64,000 bases of DNA from Callorhinchus milii (Eukaryota). The notes beneath the pieces were generated by a model. It did no database searches. It was not told the origin of the DNA and worked only from the letters and a program-made list of their open reading frames with translations. Each line of letters opens with the position of its first letter. Position 1 is the stretch's first letter. Of this stretch, positions 486 through 61,532 are shown piece by piece. The position numbers and the translations under genes are program-made. The stretch covers positions 6,388,001-6,452,000 of the forward strand of contig NW_024704742.1 of the NCBI RefSeq assembly GCF_018977255.1, written 5' to 3'.

Positions 486-1169
486 TGCTATTGAACAGGC
501 ATGGTTCCTCTCAAAGTCTAACAAATCAGTCGTCGGTAACTTTGTTCCTTGTTTGGCAGATGTTTCACCTTTATTGAGCTCAGCAGCAATACGGCCTGTC
601 ACAGCGTTTAATTGCTCAAGTAGAATGGAAATGCAATCACTCAGCTGCTTCTAACAATTTTCTTTTTTTTAAACCAATGCAAAAGAACAGCACAGAACAA
701 CCTCTGGAATAAAACGGTAAAATTTGACTGTTATCTTCTGTGGTTCAAAGCAGGGTCGTATGAGGCTTCAGGAAACCAATCACTGTTGTGGTTTGAGGTA
801 CATCCCATACTCTGAAAATAGCAGCAGATAGCGTTGAAGAGATTGTACTGTATTGTGCACAGTTGGCAAGGCCCATTTGTACCAATTAATTTAACCTAGA
901 GTTCTTGATATTGCCAGATTACAATGTGTAATGGAGCATACAGCGCGCGCACACACACAGACACACACACGCCAGCACAATTTCCATCTAAGCAGGCATG
1001 GCAAATCTAAGGTTGTCCCACATTGCAGTCCTATTTTGAATAGCTTGAAGCCTTGTTGCTGTAATATTGAGGAAATCCTCCTTGTGGCATTAATTGCACT
1101 TTGTAATATTGGGGAGTGTTAGGGCGAATGCAGCACATGTTATCCTCACTGGTTATTATAAGCACTTTG

Positions 1170-1276
1170 TAATAATAATAATCCTTACATTTGATATAGT
1201 GCCTTAATATGTTGTTGCGACGTCTCAAAGCGCTTCAACGAATGTACTGTAAAGTGAACTGACTGTATATTTTGTA
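1170..1276 (-). mobile_element. 3' fragment of young Deu-type SINE
   Basis: Reverse complement of the SINE 3' end and (TTA)n tail seen at 1940-2020. Confidence 0.8.
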
Positions 1277-1464
1277 CACTTCAACCAAACATTGAGTCAA
1301 AGACAGTCAATAATATTAACACTCCTTGAATTTGGCGTAGCGCCCTTATAGCATCTTCAAGACTTCCCAAAGTGCTCCACAGAATATACTGTGAAGTGAA
1401 ACAAAACCAGAAGTCGCTGGGAAAACTCAGCAGGTCAGGCAGCATCTATGGAGGAGGGAAAGCG

Positions 1465-1501
1465 AGTCAACATTTCGGGTCCACGACTCTTCGTCAGAAC
1501 T
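1465..1501 (-). ncRNA. Minimal type I hammerhead ribozyme-like motif (Penelope-associated)
   Basis: Minus strand reads AGTT CTGACGA A GAGTC GTG GACCC GAAA TGTT GACT: stem I, CUGANGA core, stem II with one mismatch, GAAA, GUU triplet. Confidence 0.6.
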
Positions 1502-1695
1502 GGGGCCGGTTGGTCGTTAGCTTTAGCCCTCTGGACTCAATATCGATTTCAGCCACTTCAGAACATAACAGCTCACCTTCCCACCCACCCCCTCCTCTTT
1601 CTGTTACCAGCAGAGTTATCTTCTGTTATCATTACAATCATTTGGTTGTACAAACCCCCCCTTTTGTTTTACGCCACTATCACCTCTTTATCCCT

Positions 1696-2020
1696 GGAGT
1701 CCTGTAGCTCAGTGGTTAGAGCACTCGCTTTGCAAGTGAGAGACCTGAGTTCAATTCCAGGCAGAGGGCGAAACCTTGGACAAGTTTCCTTACTCCACAC
1801 AGAGCCTAATAATAATCCCTCCAAAACCAAAAACAATAATAAATTGGTCATTTTCAATCTACGACTGTTTGTGGGACATTGCTGCGCGCAATTGGCTGCC
1901 GCGTTTGCCCACAAATGTACAGTCAATTCACTGTACAGTGTGTTCTGTGAAGCGCTTTGGGATGTCCTCCCGACGTGAAAAGCGCTATATCAAATGCAAG
2001 GATTATTATTATTATTATTA
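1696..2020 (+). mobile_element. Full-length young tRNA-Ala-derived Deu-domain SINE, short variant
   Basis: A box TAGCTCAGTGG, TGC loop, B box GAGTTCAATTCC, core CTGTTTGTGGGACATTGCTG..CAATTGGCTGCCGCG, L2-like tail plus (TTA)n; near-identical to 46734-47076 and 58179-58512. Confidence 0.95.
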
Positions 2021-2180
2021 ATCCGTCAACTAACGCATTCTCTACATTCTCTCCTCTGTCTTCTTTTTCGCCTTCTTTGTCGTCCTTGACCTGCCTCCCC
2101 TTCTCAACTTGCCCTTAAAAACCTCTCCCTCCCAACATGCCCCAGTTCTGGGGTTGTGGACCTGAAACATTGACTCGCTT

Positions 2181-2285
2181 AGAGTGTCAGCCTGGACGAG
2201 GAGCCCACACTTCTGAGGAGGTGGGGCCATCAATTCACAACCTGCTGATTGAGAGGTGAGAGTGCTACCAATTGAGCCAAACCAG
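2181..2285 (-). mobile_element. Head of older Deu-SINE; its 3' end probably lies at ~1330-1400
   Basis: Reverse complement of TTGGCTCAATTGGTAGCACTCTCACCTC.., shared with the heads at 22555, 55705 and 57426. Confidence 0.7.
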
Positions 2286-3180
2286 CAGGAGTCACTCTCA
2301 CCCGAGATGTCAACGAGCATGTGTAAATCTGTGGCAGTCTGACACCTGTCTTCGACAGGATTCAATAAATATATACTCACCACGGGAGAGGGTGTGTGTG
2401 TGGGTGTCTAAAGGTCTAACTTACAGCATATCTTAATTGGGGCCTTTAGTAAGAAATCTGAGTTGGGGCAATCCAATGGTGAGGATGGGGATTTCTTGCG
2501 GAAACCGGAAACGCATCAGACGTGGAATATTTTTTGGAGTGGAGTGTTTGGGGTTGACGGGAATCCTAACGGGATTCCTTAATAAGCTTGCATGCCTTCT
2601 CCATATATAAGCGGCTGGAGGTTTAAACCCCCCGTAGAGCCATGAAGGGTGAAAGCAGATGAACATGTGGACTTTGGGTGGGAGAGGTGGGGTTTGGGGG
2701 TTGGGGTGAGTGGGAGAGAACGAAAGAAAATTATTATTTTTGAGTATACAAATTGACCTGACTGTACTGGCTGGCACGCTGTCAAACCAGGATCCACATG
2801 CAACTGGCTATGTAGAGTCTAACAAGCCATTACTGGTTGGTTGCATGTGTATGATTAAATAGCTCATTAGCACATTGCAGTTTGTCAGCCAGCCAAGAGA
2901 TCTGGAAAACCCAGCTAGTAAGGGGGTGAATAAAATGCACCCCCCGAATAGGTCAATCATACATCTTTGATGTGTTTTCCTTCGCAAAGTGATTTGTTAC
3001 GTTCTTACTTTCCCCATGTGAAGAAACACAACACGGCAGTATGACTTTAATTAATCGCACAAAGCAACTCATTTAGAGCGCTGTGTGTGTGGAACATGGC
3101 AAACCTGCCTAGAAGGGGGATGCCAGATGTGAACTATTTTGCTTATTATTAATTCCTCCGTTGCTTGAGATGCGCAGCAC

Positions 3181-3198
3181 AGCGTCACCTGGTGGACG
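3181..3198 (-). promoter_or_regulatory. Candidate CTCF site
   Basis: Minus strand CGTCCACCAGGTGACGCT versus consensus CCASYAGRKGGCRC, one core mismatch, in locally CpG-rich sequence. Confidence 0.4.
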
Positions 3199-3649
3199 CA
3201 CCAGGAAGCAGTGGATTTTTATTGTGCCTTATCAGGTCAACATTTTGCAACGTGCTTTACAGCAACCACTGTCAAACGCGGTGACGGTGCCCAACAGTCC
3301 CCCCAATAAATACAGCCATTCACGACACGGCTGTTTGCGGGACATTGCTGGTTGCGTGCAGGTTAGCTGCTGCATTCGCCTGCGCGATTCACACACTCCC
3401 TGCGTTTGTAGTATATCCTCCTAATGCGAAAGGTGCTAAAGCAAATGTAACGATTGTTAATATCATATGAAATGGTATACCTTAAAAAAGGCTATTCACA
3501 AAAGTACCAGGCGAGAGACTCGTTTTACAAAGGCACTTTGAAATGTTCTCCTGATGTGAAAAATGGTAATAAATGGCTGTGTGCAGCAGGAGTTTTGCCA
3601 CCCAAACATTCATGGAGTTGAACGATCGAGCTATCGGAAAGATTGGTTA

Positions 3650-3910
3650 TACTTTTAGGTTGTTTCAATGCTTCAAATGATTTACTGCATAATGTAGTGA
3701 CTGCATTTTGTAGGTAAACCCAGCAGCCGATTTGCACACAGCAATATCCCACAAGCAGCCGTGAAGTGAATGGCCAATTGTATTGGGGGATTGTTGGCTG
3801 GAGAAACTTCCTTCTCTTCTTGAACAGTGACATAAGAATTTGAACGTCCACCTGGGCAGGTAGATAGGATCTTAGTTTTGTTTCTCATCCGAAGGACAGC
3901 ACTTTGTGGA
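3650..3910 (-). mobile_element. Older Deu-SINE fragment
   Basis: Reverse complement of Deu core (..GTGGGATATTGCTGTGTGCAAATCGGCTGC..). Confidence 0.75.
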
Positions 3911-3954
3911 ATAAACGCCACACCAAGGAGAAAATGTATTCAAGTCCAGGCTTC

Positions 3955-4500
3955 ATCATGTCCAGGGTTGAGCATTTTAACTCCCTGTTTGCCAGACTTC
4001 CCAACTTCCCTCCACAAGATGCAGATTATTCCGAACTCAATGGCTTGTGTCCTTTCCCGCACCAAGCTCCGTGAGCCTATCACCCAATTCCTCTCTAGGC
4101 TTCCCAACCCCAGAGGATGGAATTCGAGATCCTCTTACTCACTTTTAAAGCCCTCCATGGTCTTGCGCCTTATTAGATGCTAATCCCATATTGACCCGTC
4201 TGCTCCTTCCGTTCAGCAGGCTCCAGCCTACTCCCTACCATCGGTGGTCAGGCCTTCAGCCTCTTTGCTCCCACCCTCTAGAACTCTATCCCACAGTCCC
4301 TTCACCTCGCCCCCTCCCTTGCCTCCTTCAAGGCATATTTCAAGACCCTCTTCTTCGACCGTGTTTTTGGTCACCCTCCTACCCATACCCTCCCTATCCT
4401 TCTGATCCCAACCACCTGCTCTGGTCCAAATCCTTGACTGTCCAGTGCCTTGGGACGTCCTCCCAACGTGAAAGATGCTATACGATTGTAATTTGTTTGT
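3955..4500 (+). mobile_element. L2 LINE 3' fragment
   Basis: Degenerate LHKMQIIPNS.A.VLSRTK C-terminus; similar to 29560-30128; 3' end GGGACGTCCTCCCAACGTGAAAG. Confidence 0.85.
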
Positions 4501-10965: not shown

Positions 10966-11108
10966 GAAAAATAAAAGGCAAAATATTGCAGATGCTGGAA
11001 ATTTGAAAGAAAAACAAAAGTCGCTGGATAAACTCAACGGGTCAGGCAGCATCTATGGAGAGAGGAAAGTGAGTTAACGTTTCAGGTCGATGACCTTTTG
11101 TCACAACT
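10966..11108 (-). mobile_element. Solo Penelope-like 3' terminal repeat with degenerate hammerhead motif
   Basis: Similar to 1401-1501; minus strand AGTT GTGACAA A AGGTC ATC GACCT GAAA CGTT AACT. Confidence 0.75.
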
Positions 11109-11124
11109 CACCTCTCATACAGCT

Positions 11125-19684: not shown

Positions 19685-20060
19685 GGAGTCGTGCAGCTTA
19701 ATGGTTAGAGCACTTGCCTCGCAAACGAGTGGACCCGGGTTTGATTCCCGGGAATTGCGAAACCTTAGGCAAGTTTCTTTCCTCCACACGCCTCTGTTTA
19801 CCTCGCAGTAAGCAGGAACCCAGTTGTTAGTTGATTAACGGATTTCTTTTCCGGGGGTATTAATTCCTTCAAAATAATAATAATTTGGTCACTCAATCCA
19901 TGACTGTTTGTGGGTCACTGCTGTGCGCAATTGGCTGCCGGGTTTCATCCATAAAATGAACAGTCAATTCACTTTACAGTATATCCTGTGAAGATCTTTG
20001 AGACAGTTCAAAGATGTGATGAGGCACTACATCAAATGCAAGGATTATTATTATTATTAT
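19685..20060 (+). mobile_element. Full-length young SINE, long variant
   Basis: tRNA head with CGC loop, extra ~80 bp block, Deu core, (TTA)n. Confidence 0.9.
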
Positions 20061-30128: not shown

Positions 30129-30322
30129 TATTTTTTCCAAAGGTATTATTATCCCCCGAAAAGCGATCTGCCAATCAACTAACAAACAGTTTCTTACTTA
30201 CTGTTAGGTAAACAGAGGCATGTGGAGTAAGGAAACTGGCCCAAGGTTTCACCCTGCTGGGAATTGAACCCAGGTCTCTCACTTGCAAGGCGAGTGCTCC
30301 AACCATTGAGCTGCAGGACTCC
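30129..30322 (-). mobile_element. Long-variant SINE, 5' half
   Basis: Reverse complement of tRNA head plus long-variant block. Confidence 0.88.
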
Positions 30323-38724: not shown

Positions 38725-39088
38725 GGGACTCCTGTAGCTCAATGGTTAGAGCACCCGCCTCGCAAGCGAGAGACCCGGGTTTGATTCCTGACAGGGCAAA
38801 ATGTTGGGCAAGTTTCCGTACTCCACACCCCTCTGTTTACCTATCAGTAAGTAGGAACCCGGTTGTTAGTCGATTGGCGGATCACTTTTCCGGGGGTAAT
38901 AATTCCTTCAAAAAATAAAAGAATAAATTGGTCACTTCAATCAACGACTGTCTGTGGGACGTTGCTGTGTGCAATTGGCTGCCGTGTTTTGCCCACAAAA
39001 TATAATCAATTCACTTTACAGTATATTCTGTGAAGTGCGTTGAGACGTCTCGAAGATGCGATAAGACGTTATGTCAAATGCAAGGATA

Positions 39089-44330: not shown

Positions 44331-44696
44331 ATGATAATAATAATCCTTGCATTTGATATAGTGCCTTATCACATTTTGGAGACATTTCGAAGCGCTTCAC
44401 AGAATATACTGTAAAGTGAATTGACTGTATATTTTGTGGGCAAAACGAGGCAGCCAATTGCGCAGATCGTGTCTCACAAACAGTGGTGGATTGAGTAACC
44501 ACATTTTTTTTGAGAAGGATTATTATCCCTGGAAAAGCTATCCGCTAATCAACTAACAACTGGGTTCCTACTTACTGCGAGGTAAACAGAGGCGTGTGGA
44601 GTAAGGAAGCTTGCCCAACGTTTCGCCCTGCCGGGAATTGAACCCAGGTCTCTCGCTTGCGAGGCGAGTGCTCTAACCAATGAGCTACAGGACTCC
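44331..44696 (-). mobile_element. Full-length young SINE, long variant
   Basis: Reverse complement of the 38725-39127 type. Confidence 0.92.
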
Positions 44697-46733: not shown

Positions 46734-47039
46734 GGAGTCCTGTAGCTCAGTGGTTAGAGCACTCGCTTTGCAAGCGAGAGACCTGAGTTCAATTCCAGGC
46801 ACAGGGCGAAACCTCGGGCAAGTTTCCTTACTCCACACAGAGCCAAATAATAATCCCTCCAAAACCCAAAACAATAATAAATTGGTCATTTTCAATCCAC
46901 GACTGTTTGTGGGACATTGCTGTGCGCAATTGGCTGCCGCGTTCGCCCACAAATATACAGTCAATTCACTTTACAGTGTGTTCTGTGAAGCGCTTTGGGA
47001 TGTCCTCCCGACGTGAAAAGCGCTATATCAAATGCAAGG

Positions 47040-51086: not shown

Positions 51087-51463
51087 GGAGTCCTATATCT
51101 CAGTGGTTAGAGCACTCGCCTCGCAAGCGAGAGGTCTGGGTTGGATTCCCAGCAGGGCGAAACGTTGGGCAAGTTCCCTTACTCCACGTACCTCTGTTTA
51201 CCCAGCAGTAAGGAGGAACCCGGTTGTTAGTCGATTGGCGGATCGCTTTTCCGGGGGTAATAATTCCTTCAAAAAACTAATAATAATAAATTGGTCACTT
51301 CAATCCATGACTGTTTGTGGGACGCTGCTGCATGCAATTGGCTGTCGCGTTTCGCCCACAAAATATACATTCAATTCACTTTACAGTATATTCTGTGAAT
51401 TACTTGAAGGCGTCTCGAAGATGTGATAAGGGGCTATATCAAATGCAAGGATTATTATTATTA
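51087..51463 (+). mobile_element. Full-length young SINE, long variant
   Basis: Head with CGC loop, long block, tail. Confidence 0.93.
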
Positions 51464-57799: not shown

Positions 57800-58625
57800 T
57801 AGAATCATAGAATCTTACAGCACAGCAAGAGGCCATTCAGTCCATCGTGCCTGTGCCAACTAGTCCCACTCCCTCGCTCTTACCCCATAGCCCTGCAAAT
57901 GTTCTTTTTCAAGTACCTATCCTATTCAGAAAGCAATTGTTGAATCTTCTTCCACCACCCTTTCAGTTAGTGCATTCCAGACAATAACAACTCTCTGGGT
58001 GAAAAAAATTCTCCTTGTCTCTCCTCTGGTTCTTTTGCCAATTATCTTAAATCTGTGTCCTCCAGTTACTGACACACCCACCAATGGAAACAGTTTCTTC
58101 CTATCTAATCTATCAAAACCTCTCATAATTTTGAACACTTCTACTGAATCCCCCCCTCAACCTTAATCCCTGGCTGGGAATAATAATAATAATAATCTTT
58201 AATAATCTTCTTTGCATTTGATATAGCGCTTTTCACGTCGGGAGGACGTCCCAAAGCGCTTCACAGAACACACTGTAAAGTGAATTGACTGTATATTTGT
58301 GGGCGAACGCGGCAGCCAATTGCGCACAGCAATGTCCCACAAACAGTCGTAGATTGAAAATGACCAATTTATTATTGTTTTGTTTTGGAGGATTATTATT
58401 GGGCTCTGTGTGGAGTAAGGAAACTTGCCCAAGGTTTCGCCCTCTGCCTGGAATTGAACTCAGGTCTCTCACTTGCAAAGCGAGTGCTCTAACTACTGAG
58501 CTACAGGACTCCACAGTTACAGAATAATCCCAGTCTCTCTTATCTCTCCACATAATTGTAGTCCCTCATCACTGGCATCATTCTTGTAAATCTCCTCTGC
58601 ACCCTCTCCAAAGCCCTGATGTCCT
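57800..58625 (-). mobile_element. CR1 3' fragment interrupted by young SINE
   Basis: FKIMRGFDRLDRKKLFPL..GHRFKI..FFTQRVVIVWNAL; continues at 58520-58625. Confidence 0.93.
58179..58512 (-). mobile_element. Full-length young SINE, short variant
   Basis: Reverse complement near-identical to 1696-2020. Confidence 0.95.
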
Positions 58626-60319: not shown

Positions 60320-60762
60320 CATCTCAAAGCGCTTCATAGAATATACTGTGAAGTGAATTGGCTGTGGATTTTGTGGGCAAAACACGGTACCAATTGTGCA
60401 CAGCAGTGTTCCACAAACAGTCGTGAGTGACCAAATGATTATTATTATTTTCGCCCGCAAAACATACAATCAATTCACTTACAGTGTATCCTGTGAAGCG
60501 CTTTTGAGGGGTCTCAAAGACATGATAAGGCATTATATCAAAATGTAAGGATTATTATTATTTTATTTATTTGTTTATTTTTGAAAGGATTATTGCTTAA
60601 GCGAACCAACAATCGACTAACAATCGGGTTCCTACTTACTGCTAGGTAAACAGAGGCATGTGGAGTAAGGAAACTTTCCTAAGGTTTTGCCTCATCAGGG
60701 AATCGAACCCGGGTCCTCTCGCTTGTAAGGCGAGTGGCCTAACCAATACGCTACAGGACTCT
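60320..60762 (-). mobile_element. Long-variant SINE with an opposite-strand SINE 3' fragment (~60449-60562) inside it
   Basis: Minus core 60320-60448, plus-strand tail fragment, minus head 60575-60762. Confidence 0.82.
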
Positions 60763-61412: not shown

Positions 61413-61532
61413 ATGGTAAGCAGAGGTGTGTGGAGTGAGGAAACTTGCCTAACATTTTACCCTGCCCGGGAATCAAACCCAGGTCCTCTCGCTTGCGAGG
61501 CGAGTGCTCTAACCACTGAGCCACAGGACTCC
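61413..61532 (-). mobile_element. Head-only fragment of long-variant SINE
   Basis: Reverse complement of tRNA head. Confidence 0.85.

Follow-up and report, generated by a model that had tools for sequence, protein, structure and literature searches.

Head-to-head remains of hammerhead-bearing Penelope-like elements in a 64-kb window of Callorhinchus milii DNA

Positions 1397-2180 of the DNA analysed here, a stretch of 64,000 nucleotides from Callorhinchus milii that we call the window, are with high confidence the dead remains of a family of endonuclease-bearing Penelope-like elements (PLEs). They comprise two 5'-truncated copies that meet head to head, a short one on the minus strand and a longer one on the plus strand, each with a minimal type I hammerhead ribozyme motif towards its 3' end. 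Such head-to-head, 5'-to-5' joining is the usual insertion product of this family. PLEs that carry minimal hammerheads are a known kind of element (Cervera and de la Pena 2014; Craig 2021), of which this locus is an ordinary example. All coordinates given below are window positions unless a locus is named; the source genome comprises 991 Mb in 1762 contigs, and the counts from genome searches are first-look candidates.

The left copy (copy 1) occupies 1397-1513 on the minus strand and holds the terminal ~117 nt of the element, that is, the hammerhead region and the 3' end, with its 5' truncation at 1513. Used as a query, 1401-1520 gave 3008 candidates in the genome, so that the family of which the preliminary description had called this a truncated copy is a very abundant one; the 40 scored places were 88-100% identical, nearly all of them spanning query positions 1-113, and the 39 places other than its own were 88-93% identical to copy 1. 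Aligned with 29 loci, copy 1 appears as a repeat with a shared end that has two forms, with and without an extension of ~33 nt. Copy 1 itself is of the short form, without this tail extension, and has the tail type of subfamily 'a'. BLAST matches to family copies stop at 1513 and begin again at 1521-1525, placing the 5' ends of the two arms 7-11 nt apart on either side of a junction (1514-1520) that has no alignment to the family.

The right copy (copy 2) lies on the plus strand in two parts. Part 1, at 1521-1692, contains the last codons of an open reading frame (ORF) at 1527-1568 and the start of the 3' untranslated region (UTR), with a stretch absent at about 1641-1654 by comparison with its relatives; at 1525-1641, identity with the other scored places (40 scored of 596 candidates) is 87-91%. 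Part 2, at 2021-2180, continues the 3' UTR and includes, at 2144-2175, a disabled hammerhead. Between them a tRNA-derived short interspersed element (SINE), a later arrival within copy 2, occupies 1693-2020 on the plus strand, with a tRNA-like head at 1702-1764 (Rfam tRNA match, 40.2 bits), an ATT-rich end, and full-length copies 70-97% identical in 6 loci. PLE sequence of a subfamily B picks up again past the SINE, at about 2018-2021. Because 1525-1641 and 1654-1694 match places directly upstream of the relatives of the right arm, in the same loci, the DNA between the arms is not foreign to the element. The right arm (2040-2180; 1543 candidates) belongs to this second subfamily, which upstream of the hammerhead resembles the first at ~80%. 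Copy 2 ends at 2180, about 75-110 nt before the 3' end of the family, and no relative's match passes that position. The inverted copies first noticed at 1459-1505 and 2140-2180 were recovered by repeat search as two blocks, 1460-1487/2153-2180 (28 nt, 86% complementary) and 1495-1513/2132-2150 (19 nt, 89% complementary), the right copy having a 5-nt gap between the two. The preliminary description had taken them for the inverted termini of a single PLE; the assignment to a PLE family stands, and the arms are instead the facing parts of two truncated copies.

The link to PLEs comes through the ORF. Positions 1527-1568 (+) translate to PSGLNIDFSHFRT*, preceded by two in-frame stops, and since PSGLNIDFSHFRT matches the C-termini ...LGTLQPSGLNIDFSQFRP* of longer copies and of a 798-aa homologue (P0004), the peptide is the C-terminus of the family ORF, which encodes reverse transcriptase (RT) and GIY-YIG endonuclease (EN), and it belongs to the right copy. 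Loci containing the 1525-1641 segment reach more than 1.8 kb upstream, with variable 5' ends. The REVERSE TRANSCRIPTASE and GIY-YIG nuclease parts of these longer copies lie in broken frames, whose pieces read LYLLPKIH..PGRPIVS, RYIDDC, YKPTNSHSYLDYTSSHP, GTFPCQRRRCNTC and VVYCI.CSRCGLLYIGETKRRL.DRFAEHL and terminate in ...LGTLQPSGLNIDFSQFRP*. The longer copies thus run into a degraded ORF, as had been expected of them: the RT piece (L072, 292 aa, LYLLPKIH...PGRPIVS...RYIDDC) is 52% identical to residues 216-506 of P0004 (E 5e-101), and the EN pieces (L073, L074) are 52% identical to residues 620-797 (E 5e-54). The EN piece as a protein query returned 10 proteins, including P0004; the best matches, with 61-62% identity, are unnamed proteins from three cartilaginous fishes. 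Both RVT_1 and GIY-YIG are matched in P0004, P0002, P0009 and P0011, RVT_1 at E 1e-5 to 1.5e-4 in these four; GIY-YIG scores 22.6-26.4 bits in these and P0008, at the cut-off in P0004 (22.6 bits, beside 24.1 bits for RVT_1, under its own cut-off) and above it in P0002, P0008, P0009 and P0011. A C-x4-C-x2-C linker is invariant, the atlas neighbours are RT clusters (score 0.97), and P0004 as a query returned 1989 candidates in this genome. Taken together, domain order and motifs in the longer copies point to an RT of the PLE/telomerase-like type and to a GIY-YIG domain C-terminal to it in the same ORF, of which the window itself holds only the final 13 codons and the stop.

In the left copy the minimal type I hammerhead lies at 1465-1501 on the minus strand, recognised both by a descriptor-type pattern and by our covariance model R1. 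The minus strand of 1454-1509 reads ...CCCCAGTT CTGACGA A GAGTC GTG GACCC GAAA TGTT GACT CGC..., with AGTT as the strand of stem I, exactly the string given in the preliminary description. Stem I pairs 1498-1501 with 1465-1468; the CUGACGA box (1491-1497) is followed by a bulged A (1490), stem II (1485-1489 with 1477-1481, loop 1482-1484) and the GAAA box (1473-1476), and the predicted cleavage site falls between 1469 and 1468. Compared with the family, G>A at 10.2 leaves an A.C mismatch and stem II with 4/5 pairs, and C>U at 15.2 makes positions 15.1-16.1 AUGU (1470-1473), an ATGT that is the CpG decay of ACGT and with which G.U pairing in a dimer would still be possible. The pattern CTGANGA, 9-26 nt, GAAANNTNGAC has a single match in the window, at 1466-1497 (-), and none in 100 dinucleotide-preserving shuffles. 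The right hammerhead (2144-2175, +) reads CTG-----GGGTT where relatives read CTGACGAAGGGTC, so that the loss of ACGAA already remarked upon is real: 5 nt, from A6 to the bulged A, are gone, a loss found in none of the 19 nearest genomic relatives (L032-L050), and the motif bears three CpG-type changes as well. Model R1 scores the left arm, whose sequence was included in building it, at 58.8 bits and the right arm at 27.5 bits; in the rest of the window it finds 28.9 bits at 11061-11116 (-). Both hammerheads of the pair are decayed, and there is no sign of function at the locus. A weak R1 match at 60666-60710 (-; 16.9 bits, E 0.05) may be a further decayed copy.

Within the family the motif is widespread and recognisable. 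Among 65 distinct hammerhead instances (genomic loci plus the window), U17 is kept in all 65, the bulged A in 64, all four stem I pairs in 61, CUGANGA in 59, GAAA in 57 and all five stem II pairs in 43, with ACGT at 15.1-16.1 in 31 and every criterion of the descriptor satisfied in 30; the variation lies mainly at four CpG sites. The family therefore retains the CUGANGA and GAAA boxes whose absence would have spoken against a hammerhead.

Among 142 unit hits in 107 sources, a few of which overlap as loci, neighbours within 150 nt are head to head in 21 cases, head to tail in none and tail to tail in none. Of 39 copies (L105-L143) picked only for a whole 70-nt tail after the cleavage site, 21 face an antisense partner within 60 nt. 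The tail extension (~33 nt, of the 30-40-bp type) is present in 21 of 57 copies. Contigs of four sequencing runs, which cannot show where molecules begin or end, often hold the repeat; some join opposite strands within it, and the tail extension shows up as loose ends.

To account for this layout we infer priming on both strands, as suggested jointly by the genomic pattern described here and by experiments in vitro with a lizard PLE (PMC11167929). In that work (Frangieh et al. 2024) on PAc, the Poseidon element of Anolis carolinensis, both strands were cut and extended, two adjacent internal start sites explained the tail, and hammerhead cleavage was protein-assisted and was not required for insertion. 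By analogy, the GIY-YIG nuclease of our element would cut both DNA strands, both 3' ends would prime reverse transcription of element RNA at an internal start site near the RNA 3' end, and the two cDNAs would advance towards each other and become joined. Two start sites as in PAc would explain copies with and without the tail, and cutting of both strands fits the head-to-head pairs. The sense strand of each copy carries its minimal type I hammerhead ~330 nt past the stop codon and ~70-105 nt before the insertion end; the distance from hammerhead to start sites is ~85-92 nt in PAc, as against ~70 and 103 nt to the putative sites here. ACGU at 15.1-16.1 could pair only with a second copy, the motif having no stem III of its own, and any self-cleavage would therefore need a dimer and probably the help of protein.

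A partial parallel exists in L1 elements. There, 'twin priming' yields a single insertion with an inverted 5' part, both nicked strands priming cDNA, as a minority outcome. In the present family, by contrast, head-to-head joining is the majority (21/39), and both arms mostly come from the same internal start site.

Whether the two arms in the window are themselves a single insertion event is, in our judgement, about an even call. The pair fits the head-to-head pattern and is atypical in its right arm, its mix of subfamilies, its identity and its SINE flanks. Against one event stand the 'a' tail of the left arm beside the 'B' upstream part of the right arm, an arm-to-arm identity of 78% with the gap counted, and a right arm that is long and without its tail, with ~190 nt of the presumed target SINE missing; among 39 classifiable copies, the combinations are 19 A-a, 18 B-b, 0 B-a and 2 A-b, the last two B-like by eye. 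These observations lend themselves to two independent insertions, in which a subfamily-B copy came first and a subfamily-A copy later, beside or inside it and in the opposite direction, with nesting and later deletion producing the present arrangement; we give this account somewhat less than an even chance. It would explain why the arms bear the diagnostic bases of different subfamilies when no sampled copy truly joins a B upstream part to an 'a' tail, why their identity falls below the 90-100% of other pairs, in L013, L016, L070, L035 and L034 (though L062 and L036 show 83-86%), and why the right arm is without the tail that both arms retain in typical pairs; a tendency of PLEs to insert into, or next to, older copies is also described in a review (PMC6765202). 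At the same time, the 5' ends of the arms abut within 7-11 nt like those of typical family pairs, and 21 head-to-head neighbours against none in the other two orientations make chance nesting unlikely as a general source of pairs. Moreover, both arms differ from the family majority by a similar ~8-9% (a by-eye count on alignments), and they share a rare G in GACTCGCTT that occurs in just 3 of 65 instances (window, L012, L058).

The 5' ends of the copies invite a further, more speculative reading. In the 39 tail-selected copies, 25 of these ends coincide with the first bases of stem I, 29-37 nt upstream of the cleavage site; 3 coincide with the cleavage site itself, 6 lie beyond the 150 nt fetched, and 5 are elsewhere. 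Most family copies are stubs of ~105-135 nt. An A/T-rich, TATA-like box lies ~29-36 nt upstream of the 5' edge in this family and in two metagenome lineages, and CCAGTTC at the edge itself fits what we take to be an initiator-type start (YYANWYY pattern). It is possible, if rather unlikely as a whole, that the sharp 5' edge of most copies is the 5' end of the element RNA, that PLE transcripts start with the hammerhead, and that stubs and pairs follow from this. The stubs would then be run-off cDNAs, reverse transcription having started at the 5'-proximal copy of the internal start site, and the head-to-head pairs would be footprints of a dimeric particle priming both strands. If true, the window pair with its arms of two subfamilies would record two template RNAs in one event. 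A stub of this kind, with a mutated core, lies in the window at 11024-11116 (-). Copies starting at the cleavage site, considered as a footprint of self-cleavage, number just 3 of 39; their scarcity suggests that cleaved RNA is seldom the template, in agreement with PMC11167929.

A separate family might underlie the same stubs, one that is non-autonomous and retrozyme- or SINE-like, that consists of the ribozyme-bearing end only and is mobilised in trans by PLE proteins, and of which the left arm would be a member. Its appeal lies in the 25 of 39 tail-selected copies that begin at the 5' edge of the hammerhead and are ~105-135 nt long, and in the derivation of animal non-LTR retrozymes (those of the type without long terminal repeats, LTRs) from PLE pseudo-LTRs as set out in a preprint (Li et al. 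2026). We consider it improbable, given that the left arm begins 15 nt upstream of the stub edge and is therefore not a canonical stub, that stubs do not differ in sequence from the 3' end of long ORF-bearing copies, and that tandem repeats, which define retrozymes, are missing (no head-to-tail arrays, 0 of 21 close neighbours).

The hammerhead interpretation itself gains most from PLEs outside this genome. Metagenome contigs scanned by protein alignment yielded 25 PLE loci (72,894 nt), in which a descriptor modelled on the published one found 8 matches in the sense of the ORF and 1 in antisense, with 50 shuffles giving none. In a 10-sequence alignment, 98.9% of cells are paired, compared with 13-48% when the partner is slid; between our family and a metagenome lineage, both partners differ in 6 of the 9 helix pairs (stem I 4/4, stem II 2/5), so that the stems covary as the preliminary description required of a genuine hammerhead. 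Position 10.1-11.1 is G-C in 9 of the 10 aligned sequences and G-U in one, and three PLE lineages (this genome and the metagenome contigs) retain the core, bulged A, G10.1-C11.1 and ACGU palindrome. The third of these lineages (L091, L093) has different stems again but a mutated CUGA box. The covariance model derived from the alignment located more copies past the ORF end, each in the orientation of the ORF, in L081, L091, L092 and L093. Energy folding of monomers recovered both stems for L009 and L079, though not for the window copies. That the motif is a chance hammerhead-like string, or that the arms are terminal inverted repeats of a DNA transposon or miniature inverted-repeat transposable element, can be dismissed, short and inverted as the arms are and silent as Rfam is on hammerheads, since chance would yield the pattern 0.00 times, distant relatives show the motif again with compensatory changes, and the arms, unequal in extent, derive from a retroelement whose ORF encodes RT and GIY-YIG, with no target-site duplication and no transposase. 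The minimal PLE hammerhead that had been proposed from the letters is thus upheld by a pattern unique in 64 kb and by its recurrence in PLE relatives.

One metagenome contig, L079, carries an apparently intact PLE: a 964-aa ORF at 1057-3951 with RVT_1 and GIY-YIG matches, between two direct repeats of 201 nt that are 92% alike and 3066 nt apart, with motifs at 1024-1061 and 4090-4127. The ATG of this ORF overlaps the cleavage site (A17|UG), a point in which it is to be set against PAc, and cleavage would therefore take the start codon off the ORF.

Several results weigh against the account given here of the element and its ribozyme. Conservation of the motif among the genomic copies is 0.94, compared with 0.93 and 0.97 in the flanks; being kept no better than its surroundings, the motif indicates that the copies decay neutrally, not under selection, and they are uninformative on selection. 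The independent lineages behind the covariation are few. Minimum-free-energy dimers are domain-swapped duplexes instead of the stem III dimer, with a folding method that does not model the core or stem III. No direct-order pseudo-LTR pair occurs in the sample from this genome (0 of 21 close neighbour pairs). Rfam at its gathering score finds no hammerhead in the window, nor does it at E<=10 in 1101-2600 (type I/III, HH9, HH10, II), and it finds none even in the intact copies of L009, L079 and L083. For the ORF, RVT_1 reaches 21.9-25.6 bits in the homologues, under the Pfam cut-off of 29.6; Pfam at E<=0.01 finds nothing in 11 ORF pieces from this genome's copies, and at E<=10 only GIY-YIG (12.9 bits, E 0.14; L073, L074). 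With Pfam near-silent on the family's own pieces, the assignment of RT and EN rests on the homologues. The silence of Rfam is taken as a limitation of its models, which presumably expect the stem III that is absent here, and not as counter-evidence. The search with Rfam Hammerhead_1 that had been suggested as a check cannot work for such motifs; since the Rfam models are blind to minimal hammerheads, a descriptor or a custom model is needed.

The comparison with known systems is close. Minimal hammerheads were defined by their traits in metazoan PLEs (PMC4209133; Cervera and de la Pena 2014), most motifs being single and probably in truncated elements, with motif pairs on opposite strands 100-700 bp apart; the main text of that paper makes no mention of this family or of this host group as analysed. 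Shared with the motifs described there are the type I fold without its own stem III, the CUGANGA and GAAA boxes, a 4-bp stem I, the unpaired nucleotide between 9 and 10.1, G10.1-C11.1, the palindromic 15.2-16.2, and a massive occurrence as single motifs in truncated copies. The catalytic boxes and the cleavage-site base, which must not be G, conform in the left copy; the right copy departs from them in its 5 lost core nucleotides. Stem II here has 5 bp and a 3-nt loop, shorter than the 6 bp reported for D. virilis and the 7-8 bp for Schistosoma. Canonical endonuclease-bearing PLEs (Craig et al. 2021, PMC8557442) likewise have an RT followed by a C-terminal GIY-YIG with a CX2-5CxxC-type Cys linker, strong 5' truncation, an adjacent inverted 5'-truncated copy at the 5' end, a hammerhead near the 3' end and an optional tail (30-40 bp there, ~33 nt here); they show tandem and inverted insertions, whereas our sample has inverted ones only, without partial tandems or pseudo-LTRs. 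The idea of a dimeric PLE hammerhead is summarised in the review cited above (PMC6765202). Animal non-LTR retrozymes (Cervera and de la Pena 2020, PMC7229834; Li et al. 2026) are short non-coding units with type I hammerheads related to PLE pseudo-LTRs, as the units here are, and form tandem arrays yielding circular RNAs, unlike the present family with its 0 head-to-tail neighbours.

In itself the locus matters little, its copies being dead, its retroelement of a known type and its ribozyme motif of a known type, and it serves to show that such motifs are recognisable by a reader from the sequence without tools. The family, with thousands of copies, two subfamilies, a head-to-head majority, a two-state 3' end and 5' ends at the edge of the ribozyme, provides a data set for a question left by the PLE literature, namely the role of the hammerhead and the reason for inverted-pair insertions.

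A full-length copy with an upstream hammerhead was sought in this genome; the candidate, L104, is likewise 5'-truncated and has the motif only downstream of its ORF. This longer copy (L104 1859-2150; C2:42.55 Mb) has ORF pieces from ~P0004 residue 67 to the C-terminus and a tRNA-derived SINE within its RT, so that nesting of SINEs into PLEs is repeated. Two 3.1-kb loci on different contigs, L054 (C1:68.60 Mb) and L059 (C34:0.92 Mb), are 99.45% identical throughout, suggesting either a recent segmental duplication or duplication in the assembly. Among the proteins found, two named as transporters (P0007, P0010), a brittle-star 'sodium-dependent transporter' (46% identity over 99% of the query) and a chimaera-fish ABCB4 (80% identity over 16%), contain Penelope-like endonuclease sequence and are probably gene models contaminated by retroelement.

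The flanks of the pair are SINE-derived. Copy 2 adjoins the head of another tRNA-derived SINE (2181-2290, -), the probable insertion target, which matches 39 other places at 73-95%; the four copies fetched have ~190 nt of further body, absent here. This is a second SINE family, with a head different from that of the SINE inside copy 2. Copy 1 adjoins a SINE-tail-like segment (1308-1400, -) with 76-78% matches to SINE tails in L005, L006, L007, L012, L016 and L029, which may be the remainder of the target SINE; the two flanks share one orientation, and ~190 nt of SINE body are lacking. The link is a weak one, because the segment 1280-1400 gives no BLAST match to the four SINE copies fetched for the head. 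A longer inverted repeat around the finding, 1170-1272/1913-2014 (54 nt at 81%, 36 nt at 92%), is formed by two oppositely oriented SINE 3' tails and has nothing to do with the PLE arms. Elsewhere in the window, and counting the head at 1702-1764, there are nine highly alike tRNA-like matches (36-64 bits), the others at 19693-19759, 30249-30320, 38731-38795, 44623-44694, 46741-46801, 51089-51160, 58444-58506 and 61458-61529; rather than tRNA genes, these are heads belonging to a tRNA-derived SINE family scattered over the window.

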